Assembly (NCBI RefSeq): GCF_054482595.1
Contig: NZ_CM137008.1
Strand: one strand, 5' to 3'
DNA length: 64,000 bases
The position numbers were made by a program. Positions 6,001-9,000 of this stretch are shown here, in pieces (position 1 is the first letter of the stretch; every line of letters starts with the position of its first letter).

Positions 6001-9000
6001 GCCGCCAACAAAGTCAATAACATGACAACTAACGGATAATTCCATTTACCCAGGAAGGAGATTGTGATGTTTGCAGATGAAGAACTTGTTATGGAGTTAC
6101 TGGTCAACGCGGGGCAGGCACGTTCTGACGCGATGGAAGCCATACGTTGTGCCGGGCAAAAAGACTGGCAGGGCGCAACTCAGCTAATGGCCAGTTCTGA
6201 ATCTGCCTGTCTTCAGGCACATAAGATTCAGACCGCATTAATTAGTCAGGATGAAGGCTGTGGCAAGATAAAAGTTAATTTAATTCTGGTTCATGCACAG
6301 GATCATTTGATGAATGCAATATTATGCCAGGATTTAGCCAGGGAAATTATTTCATTAAGAAAAGAACTCCATGCCTGATTTTTTCCTCCAGTGCGATAGC
6401 TGGAGGAAATTATTACACTCTTAAGGATAAGTCATGAATATAAAGACGCTTAACGTCAGCCTTTTGTCTTTTTCTATTATTACAGCATTGTTTCCATTGA
6501 ACGCGATGGCAACAAAATTAACCATAGAGCAGCGCCTTGAATTGCTTGAAAATGAATTGTCGCAAAATAAACAAGAGCTGAAAGCAACACAGAATGAACT
6601 GGGAGTATATAAATCCCGACTTTCGACCTTACAAAAAATCATCACGGAAAACAAATATAAATCAGCCTCGCTTGCTGAAATATCAGCGACATCTCCCGTC
6701 GCTGATAACATCAAAAATGAAAACGGCGAACAGAACTCGTTTACCGCAGCGCATACTATAAATGGATCGCAGCAAGTTGCCGTTATTGAAAGTAAAGGCG
6801 ACAAAACCACTATCGAAAGCGTGACCCTGAAAGATATCAGTAAATATATAAAGGATGATATTGGGTTCAGCTATCAGGGGTACTTCCGCTCAGGCTGGGG
6901 TACTGGTAATCACGGCTCACCACAAACTTATGCAGCGGGTTCTCTGGGACGTTTTGGTAATGAGATGAGCGGTTGGTTTGACCTGACCTTAAATCAGCGT
7001 GTTTATAATCAGGACGGTAAAACGGCAAATGCGGTCGTTACCTATGATGGCAACGTGGGTGAGCAGTATAACGATGCCTGGTTTGGTGACAGTGCCAATG
7101 AAAATATCATGCAGTTCAGTGATATTTATCTGACAACGCGAGGTTTTTTACCCTTCGCGCCAGAGGCAGACTTCTGGGTCGGCAAACATAAACTCCCGCA
7201 ATATGAGATCCAGATGCTGGACTGGAAAACCTTAACCACGGATGTCGCCGCGGGTGTGGGGATTGAAAACTGGGCACTTGGTGTAGGGCTGTTTGATATG
7301 TCCTTAAGCCGTGATGATGTCGATGTTTACTCTCGTGATTTTTCGCGTACCAGCCAGATGAATACCAATTCTGTGGATGTTCGTTATCGCAATATCCCGT
7401 TATGGGATGATGCGACATTATCATTAATGGCTAAATATTCCGCACCTAATAAAACGGATCAACAACAAGATAATGAAAATGACGACAGTTATTTTGAAAT
7501 GAAAGATAGCTGGATGCTGACTTCTGTTTTACGGCAAAACCTGCAACGCGATACGTTTAATGAATTTACGTTACAGGTTGCCAATAATTCCTATGCCAGC
7601 AGTTTTGCCAGTTTCTCAGATGCCAGTAATACGATGGCGCACGGTCGCTATTACTATGGTGACCATACCAATGGGATCGCCTGGCGTTTAATCTCTCAGG
7701 GCGAGATGTATCTTACTGACAATATTATTATGGCTAACGCGCTTGTCTATTCTCACGGCGAAGATGTTTATAGTTATGAAAGTGGTGCTCATAGTGATTT
7801 TGACAGTATTCGCACTGTAATAAGACCGGCCTGGATCTGGAATACATGGAATCAGACGGGGCTTGAATTAGGCTGGTTTAAGCAACAGAACAAAACTCAG
7901 CAGGGTGTAACACTAAATGAATCGGCTTATAAAACGACACTCTGGCATGCATTGAAAGTGGGTGAAAGCATTTTAGGTTCACGACCAGAAATTCGCTTCT
8001 ATGGAACGTATATAAATATTCTGGATAACGAATTATCGAATTTTAAGTTTAATGAGAACAGCAAAGACGAGTTTATGGCCGGCATCCAGGCGGAAGTCTG
8101 GTGGTAATCTATTTTAGTTAAGGAGTTGTGTATGTCAGGATTTAAAAAAGGTTTTTTATGGGGCGGCGCGGTAGCCGCGCATCAGTTGGAAGGTGGCTGG
8201 AATGAAGGAGGAAAAGGCATCAGTATCGCTGATGTGATGACTGCTGGCGCTCACGGGGTGCCGCGTGAAGTGACAGAAGGCGTTATCGACGGGCTTAATT
8301 ATCCCAATCATGAAGCAATTGATTTTTATCATCGCTATAAAACAGATATTCAGTTATTTGCCGAGATGGGATTCAAATGCTTTCGAACTTCCATTGCCTG
8401 GACACGAATCTTTCCGCAAGGTGACGAACAGGAGCCGAATGAAGAGGGTTTACAATTTTATGATGATCTGTTCGATGAGTGCCTGAAGCAGGGAATGGAA
8501 CCTGTGGTGACGCTTTCGCATTTTGAAATGCCTTATCATCTGGTGACAAAATATGGTGGCTGGCGAAACCGTAAACTGATCGACTTTTTTATCCGCTTCG
8601 CATCAACGGTCTTCACGCGCTATAAAGAAAAAGTAAAGTACTGGATGACGTTTAACGAAATCAATAATCAGGTGAATTTCAGCGAAAGCCTGTGTCCATT
8701 TACTAATTCCGGTATCTTGTATTCGCCAGAGGAAGATATCAATGAGCGCGAACAAATAATGTACCAGGCGGTACATTACGAGTTAGTTGCCAGTGCCCTG
8801 GCGGTACAGACTGGAAAATCGATCAATCCTGAATTTAACATTGGCTGTATGATCGCCATGTGCCCCATCTATCCTCTGACGTGTGCACCCAACGATATGA
8901 TGATGGCCACGAAAGCGATGCATCGTCGTTACTGGTTTACTGATGTTCATGCTCGTGGATATTACCCGCAACATATGCTGAATTACTTTGCCAGGAAAGG

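Follow-up and report, generated by a model that had tools for sequence, protein, structure and literature searches.

A variable island of the Escherichia coli chromosome encodes a LamB-family porin in which residues 31 to 73 are an amphipathic heptad helix, homologous to the Sugarporin_N segment of ScrY and BglH. The gene is located on the plus strand at positions 6434 to 8107 of the window, which is the whole stretch of 64,000 nucleotides analysed in this study (RefSeq assembly GCF_054482595.1, contig NZ_CM137008.1). Taking sequence, predicted structure and gene neighborhood together, the protein is probably (roughly 80%) an outer-membrane channel of the BglH type that is specific for sugars and belongs to a cellobiose/aryl-beta-glucoside PTS operon, putatively the cryptic bgc operon with the porin as BgcH, and its coiled coil would most likely be a periplasmic element for low-affinity binding or hand-over of sugars.

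The porin gene is intact and codes for 557 amino acids plus a stop codon. Its coordinates are identical to those of the RefSeq coding sequence WP_021556828.1 (“carbohydrate porin”, found in E. coli strains with 100% identity to the window), and a Shine-Dalgarno sequence (AAGGA) is located 9 nt upstream of the start. A signal peptide (residues 1 to 26, positions 6434 to 6511) was assigned from sequence features only; it has a hydrophobic core at residues 7 to 21, A-M-A at positions −3 to −1 and a predicted cleavage site after A26. The C-terminus ends in EVWW; both the signal peptide and the C-terminal aromatic residue typical of outer-membrane beta-barrels are present. The mature N-terminal extension comprises about 119 residues (27 to 145) with three conserved modules, namely a coiled-coil helix (residues 28 to 73, positions 6515 to 6652), a linker (residues 74 to 127, positions 6653 to 6814) and an amphipathic pre-barrel helix (residues 130 to 143, positions 6821 to 6862). 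It is followed by a LamB-type beta-barrel of 18 strands (residues 146 to 557, positions 6869 to 8104). All of these parts are encoded on the plus strand.

The affiliation to the LamB family, already proposed in the initial annotation, is borne out by profile and structure comparisons. The Pfam profile LamB (PF02264) matched residues 147 to 557 over its full length (profile positions 1 to 378) with an E-value of 1e-81 and 275.9 bits (cut-off 25.1). In the AlphaFold model, 18 main strands are formed by residues 146 to 556, mostly with pLDDT values above 90. The best PDB matches retrieved with Foldseek were maltoporin and ScrY (1mpr, 1mal, 8xcj, 1a0t, 1oh2; TM-scores of 0.76 to 0.79), with E-values about 10 orders of magnitude better than those of 16-stranded porins or of any further class of porins. 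A profile of the porin's family searched against the PDB matched LamB with 1e-129 and ScrY with 3e-77. When PDB sequences were searched with the porin alone (phmmer), no relevant match was obtained, the matches being weak coiled-coil noise (Homer, tropomyosin); LamB and ScrY are not similar enough for a pairwise search.

The greasy slide of LamB is said to consist of Y6, Y41, W74, F227, W358 and W420, and the polar tracks of R8, R33, E43, D111 and D116, as reportedly described by Schirmer et al. in 1995. In an alignment of about 25% identity, the slide residues correspond to Y150, W181, W216, F375 and W556 of the porin, i.e. five out of six positions are aromatic; W216 was placed after a shift by one column, and the counterpart of LamB W358 is L514. 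The polar-track equivalents in this alignment of about 25% identity (R152, R173, D183, E258 and D263) are invariant in all 13 orthologues.

Behind the signal peptide, the initial annotation had described a heptad-patterned, charged segment (its peptide corresponds to residues 27 to 69), and several lines of evidence confirm such a pattern. About 31% of residues 27 to 75 are charged. The heptad a positions are occupied by L35, L42, L49, L56, L63 and I70, the d positions by I31, L38, N45, T52, Y59 and L66. The period-7 hydrophobicity power of the segment is significant compared to shuffles of the segment (P = 0.0065), and the strongest heptad window in a scan of the whole protein comprises residues 29 to 70 (P = 0.01, corrected for scanning). 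As positive control, the scan recovered the known coiled coil of ScrY (23 to 64, P = 0.01), while no significant window was obtained in LamB as negative control. Six residues L, I, V or M at a spacing of seven were found with P = 0.03 for the whole protein and P = 0.006 for the extension. Period-7 power and the whole-protein scan with controls were substituted for the hydrophobic fraction of a and d positions in 28-residue windows, which turned out to be non-discriminating: 80 of 300 shuffles reached the score, and beta-strand regions scored equally.

Conservation follows the same register. Among 13 orthologues with 75 to 100% identity (Escherichia, Citrobacter, Enterobacter, Salmonella, Kluyvera and others), the per-position entropy rises from d (0.20) over a (0.45), e (0.51), g (0.73), b (0.95) and c (1.19) to f (1.54), as would be expected if the coiled coil is genuine. 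AlphaFold predicted a single continuous helix of 43 residues (31 to 73, pLDDT 80 to 91). It is separate from the barrel, the strands of which begin at residue 146, so that the segment is not part of the first barrel strands. The model used here was calculated from a 46-sequence alignment (mean pLDDT 83.5) and replaced an earlier one from a shallow alignment of 16 sequences (pLDDT 62).

The segment was also recognized by the Pfam profile Sugarporin_N (PF11471, “Maltoporin periplasmic N-terminal extension”), which matched residues 30 to 56 (positions 6521 to 6601, plus strand) with 31.4 bits (cut-off 25.7); this is only about 6 bits over the cut-off, with 27 of 31 profile positions covered. The controls ScrY (residues 28 to 58) and BglH (residues 29 to 59) scored 40.7 and 45.6 bits, respectively. 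No Sugarporin_N match was obtained in LamB of E. coli K-12, which contains the barrel domain only, from residue 28. The extension is thus ScrY-like and absent from LamB, as stated in the initial annotation. Precomputed PF11471 matches are present in all 557-residue orthologues of at least 79% identity and missing in most of the group with 75 to 77% identity (Kluyvera-type). What has to be revised is the notion of a segment of about 45 residues preceding the barrel: the heptad helix is real, but the extension as a whole is much longer, and about 72 residues (74 to 145) lie between the coiled coil and the barrel, which therefore do not abut.

It could be argued that the heptads arose by chance or reflect low complexity in a disordered N-terminus, and that no true coiled coil is present. 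The crude 28-residue score, by which the region was not separated from shuffles, would be in line with this, and N45 and T52 at d positions as well as G57 at a b position are non-ideal residues for a coiled coil. Such an origin is nevertheless very improbable and is regarded as effectively refuted, given the Pfam match above cut-off, the periodicity that is significant with controls, the conservation that tracks the heptad register and the confidently predicted helix. The coiled-coil signals in residues 27 to 75 are strong.

The linker is predicted to be disordered (pLDDT below 50 for residues 75 to 127). It contains a motif, SPVA(D/E)NIxNENGE (residues 87 to 99, positions 6692 to 6730, plus strand), which is kept across genera as SPVAENIxNENGE although the surrounding linker is predicted to be disordered. 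The pre-barrel helix was assigned from a conserved motif (h-S-x-Y-h-K-D-D-I-G-F) and from the model, in which it spans residues 132 to 143. The motif was found in 8 of 13 extension-bearing lineages sampled, BglH among them, and is absent from ScrY and LamB. In the BglH/BgcH clade, the extension may be built of a coiled coil in which polar layers of the core (N45, T52) are invariant, a disordered linker with the SPVAENIxNENGE motif and an amphipathic pre-barrel helix. It is conceivable, if rather improbable, that these three modules form a periplasmic tether distinct from the simple coiled coil of ScrY, which would be a regulated plug or an arm for docking to a periplasmic or inner-membrane partner (e.g. 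the PTS EIIC) and not a passive sugar slide. If anything is mildly new here, it is the two additional conserved modules of this clade.

The porin gene is the fourth in an operon of five genes. It is preceded by the genes of three PTS components of the lactose/cellobiose family, IIB (4291 to 4602; Pfam, NCBIfam and RefSeq), IIC (4717 to 6039 with the RefSeq start; an alternative start codon TTG of the open reading frame is found at 4678) and IIA (6067 to 6378, RefSeq start), and followed by that of a GH1 6-phospho-beta-glucosidase (8132 to 9571, RefSeq start; NCBIfam PRK09589, 1037 bits), all encoded on the plus strand. A BgcR-like GntR/UTRA regulator (3394 to 4092, minus strand; Pfam, NCBIfam and RefSeq) is transcribed divergently. 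The position of the porin gene between those for IIA and the phospho-beta-glucosidase agrees with the previous suggestion that the porin is dedicated to this PTS. According to genome comparison, these genes form a variable island of about 6.3 kb (3340 to 9625) in the interval between eamA and marB. In E. coli K-12, a 38-bp hairpin spacer is found at this site. Of 5426 complete E. coli genomes, 2493 (46%) contain 80% or more of the queried sequence (window positions 3300 to 9700, almost all of it island). In a scan of the island for promoters and terminators, sites were no more numerous than in shuffled sequences.

Gene content and gene order of the island match the descriptions of bgc, with a divergent GntR regulator followed by IIB, IIC, IIA, porin and phospho-beta-glucosidase. 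Neelakanta, Sankar and Schnetz are said to have reported the cryptic bgc operon in 2009 (Appl Environ Microbiol 75:2284) as bgcR plus bgcEFIHA in strain i484. The fifth bgc gene reportedly encodes a porin named BgcH, and the porin described here is taken to be this protein. On the basis of gene content and this reported description, we infer that the island operon is the cryptic bgc operon and its porin BgcH. In the open-access literature, no paper was found linking the name BgcH with a porin or with the bgc operon. The operon and its GntR-type regulator BgcR have been described (PMC3585215, PMC4488073), and the bgc paper receives no more than a passing citation in the publication on the E. 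coli W genome. In E. coli CFT073, c1955 to c1960 are listed as a strain-variable block of six genes (“PTS system, cellobiose specific”), which is consistent with bgc.

When 1.84 billion representative proteins were searched exhaustively, only 268 relatives of the porin with E-values up to 0.001 were retrieved. All aligned full-length relatives with at least 36% identity have 50 to 170 residues before the barrel motif, signal peptide included, and most of these extensions contain a heptad-like segment. In aligned relatives with 35% identity or less, the signal peptide is directly followed by the barrel. The Sugarporin_N model detected 11 of the 46 aligned proteins. Among nine extension-bearing porins sampled, seven are encoded in PTS operons (this porin, BglH, ScrY, P0129, P0130, P0131 and P0133) and two by orphan genes (P0132 and P0139); an ABC or MFS transporter adjoins none of the nine. 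Of the porins lacking the extension, LamB and P0190 adjoin ABC systems, P0163 an MFS transporter and a GH3 enzyme, P0152 malM, and P0159 a PTS and a GH1 enzyme. The frequencies of PTS context, 7/9 with and 1/5 without extension, differ with a one-sided hypergeometric P of about 0.06, a value calculated by hand for lineages that are not independent. A strict rule, by which porins with an extension are coupled to a PTS and those without to an ABC transporter, is only partly supported, P0159 being a clear counter-example. The link between extension and PTS is a trend and not a rule.

In the mechanism favored here, the porin would trimerize like LamB and ScrY, and its three N-terminal helices would assemble into a parallel three-stranded coiled coil hanging in the periplasm below the channel. 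Trimeric coiled coils were reportedly treated by Hartmann et al. in 2009, and the invariant asparagine at a d position fits such an assembly. Beta-glucosides would diffuse through the barrel along the aromatic slide, and the coiled coil would most likely bind the sugar with low affinity or hand it over to the PTS permease, as proposed for ScrY. The inner-membrane transporter of this pathway would be a PTS permease working without a periplasmic binding protein. The coiled coil might also add to the stability of the trimer. After uptake and phosphorylation by the PTS, the phospho-beta-glucoside would be cleaved by the GH1 enzyme. For the coiled coil of ScrY, low-affinity sugar binding is a published proposal, and its role there has been called “somewhat unclear”. 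The functions considered in the initial annotation, weak sugar binding or contact with a partner, restate what has been proposed for ScrY. Because the coiled coil and the barrel are separated by a disordered linker of about 55 residues, an uninterrupted “extended sugar slide” is a less plausible picture for this porin than for ScrY.

Two other functions of the extension are live alternatives, a structural role in the trimer and a gating role. The coiled coil might be mainly structural, either as a clamp for trimerization and assembly or as a periplasmic spacer or anchor towards the peptidoglycan, without binding any sugar. This is possible, yet not the more probable case. A similar N-terminal coiled coil is present in the porin DcaP; there, electrophysiological data pointed to no part in transport or gating, and a function in trimer integrity was proposed. 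The invariant core of the porin described here (L35, L38, L42, N45, L49, T52, L56, Y59 and L66) is what oligomerization requires, and residues at the surface positions b, c and f are free to vary, contrary to what a conserved surface for ligand binding would predict. However, the first 17 residues are nearly invariant at surface positions, too, hinting at more than core packing. Moreover, LamB, a known trimer, and 28 aligned relatives manage without any extension.

A regulatory function, in which the coiled coil and/or the pre-barrel helix gates or narrows the periplasmic mouth of the channel and thereby tunes its specificity, appears unlikely. A precedent exists in FapF, the pore of which is plugged by a helical segment immediately in front of the barrel, with a coiled coil further upstream, and the recurrence of the pre-barrel motif in the lineages mentioned above, together with the modelled helix, would suit such a function. 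ScrY deprived of its N-terminal 70 residues is said to have been more LamB-like (reportedly shown by Schuelein, Andersen and Benz in 1995), which was counted in favor of channel regulation. On the other hand, the pre-barrel helix was modelled with pLDDT values of only 63 to 80, and ScrY does not possess it.

Beyond correct annotation, the finding is of little significance. The combination of a LamB barrel with Sugarporin_N is already catalogued in Pfam, with BglH and ScrY as textbook examples; thousands of E. coli genomes carry an annotation of the porin gene, and the operon was apparently characterized experimentally in 2009. As an object of study the porin is of modest value, since its coiled coil is longer and cleaner than that of BglH, two further conserved modules are present and the organism is tractable. 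What such N-terminal coiled coils do in passive sugar channels is, according to the literature, not yet clear.

Compared by gene content alone, no difference was found between the island operon and the bgc operon. Both have a divergent GntR-type regulator and five genes including those for PTS IIB, IIC, IIA and a phospho-beta-glucosidase, and both are variable among E. coli strains, with homologues in Citrobacter and Enterobacter. LamB of E. coli K-12 (b4036) shares the barrel family with the porin (27 to 28% identity), and its greasy-slide and polar-track residues are largely kept. In contrast to the porin, it has no N-terminal extension, the barrel beginning right after the signal peptide, and its partner is an ABC transporter equipped with a periplasmic binding protein.

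The ScrY used for comparison is encoded in the scrK-Y-A-B-R cluster on a Klebsiella plasmid; its identity was confirmed by PDB entry 1A0S, which covers residues 93 to 505. This sucrose porin (pUR400, Klebsiella scr regulon; PDB 1A0S, 1A0T, 1OH2) resembles the porin in its LamB-type 18-stranded barrel (TM-score 0.79), in a Sugarporin_N coiled coil (about 42 residues) that directly follows the signal peptide and in being encoded in a PTS operon. The beginning of the coiled coil can be aligned among the porin, BglH and ScrY (STIEARLNALEKRL in ScrY). On the other hand, the identity amounts to 23 to 27% only and the substrate pathway differs. The extension of ScrY is shorter (about 70 residues compared to about 119), with the barrel starting at residue 97, and contains neither the pre-barrel helix motif nor the SPVAENIxNENGE motif. 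At d positions of the core, ScrY has alanines where N45, T52 and Y59 are invariant in the porin. An orthology to ScrY was rejected on account of the low identity and of the gene context, which is a cellobiose-family PTS with a GH1 enzyme and not scrKYABR. The porin is ScrY-like in its architecture, but it is not ScrY.

The closest relative, with 54% identity over the full length, is BglH (b3720), a cryptic porin with carbohydrate specificity from the bgl operon of E. coli K-12. Both proteins have the same architecture of signal peptide, Sugarporin_N, linker, pre-barrel helix motif (TLKDFSKFVKDEIGFSY) and LamB barrel, and both genes belong to a beta-glucoside PTS operon that also includes the gene for a GH1 phospho-beta-glucosidase. 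The heptad region of BglH is shorter, with a break around residue 56 and a proline near residue 63, and was non-significant in the 42-residue scan. Its extension is about 20 residues shorter than that of the porin, and its barrel starts at residue 127. The operons differ in regulation and in the type of PTS: while bgl encodes the antiterminator BglG and a glucose-family EIIBCA, the operon described here is accompanied by a GntR regulator and encodes separate IIB, IIC and IIA proteins of the lactose/cellobiose family.

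The island (6.3 kb between eamA and marB, window 3340-9625) has a GC content of 41-45%, compared to about 46-52% in its flanks. In E. coli K-12, the empty site is occupied by a hairpin spacer of 38 bp. Homology to K-12 stops 10 nt ahead of the eamA stop codon, and the C-terminal residues of EamA therefore depend on whether a strain carries the island. For the genes encoding PTS IIC, PTS IIA and the GH1 6-phospho-beta-glucosidase, the mechanically called ORF starts (TTG or GTG) are located 3-39 nt upstream of the RefSeq starts (4678 and 4717 for IIC, 6064 and 6067 for IIA, 8126 and 8132 for GH1, respectively); the coordinates of these three genes in the parts list are the RefSeq starts.

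The porin stop codon is separated by only approximately 24 nt from the glucosidase start (window 8105-8132). Porin-GH1 fusions of 630-749 aa are found among the database proteins (P0002-P0004 and P0034). Given the short distance between both genes, loss of the stop codon, a frameshift or an error in assembly probably accounts for these entries.

An autotransporter is encoded in two ORFs (window 32244-37665), the first (1354 aa) comprising the ESPR signal and the passenger domain, the second (442 aa) the autochaperone and the beta-domain; this has the appearance of a disrupted gene or a pseudogene. The Pfam Usher profile is matched from its position 29 onwards by a fimbrial usher ORF (window 42375-45201), upstream of which lies an overlapping ORF of 301 aa; this could be a split usher gene. 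Two neighbouring ORFs represent yneK (window 13034-14070, minus strand), which is labelled as a frameshifted pseudogene by RefSeq in a matching strain.

The linker of the porin is variable and predicted to be disordered, apart from the short motif SPVA(D/E)NIxNENGE (aa 87-99, window 6692-6730), which is kept across genera and has an entropy of 0.64 versus 1.3-2.0 in its flanks. Directly N-terminal of the barrel, an amphipathic helix motif ([15 protein letters not shown]) is found at aa 130-143 (window 6821-6862), for which a plug or docking role could be considered as a candidate. This pre-barrel helix is also conserved in BglH and six further lineages, whereas both ScrY and LamB are devoid of it.
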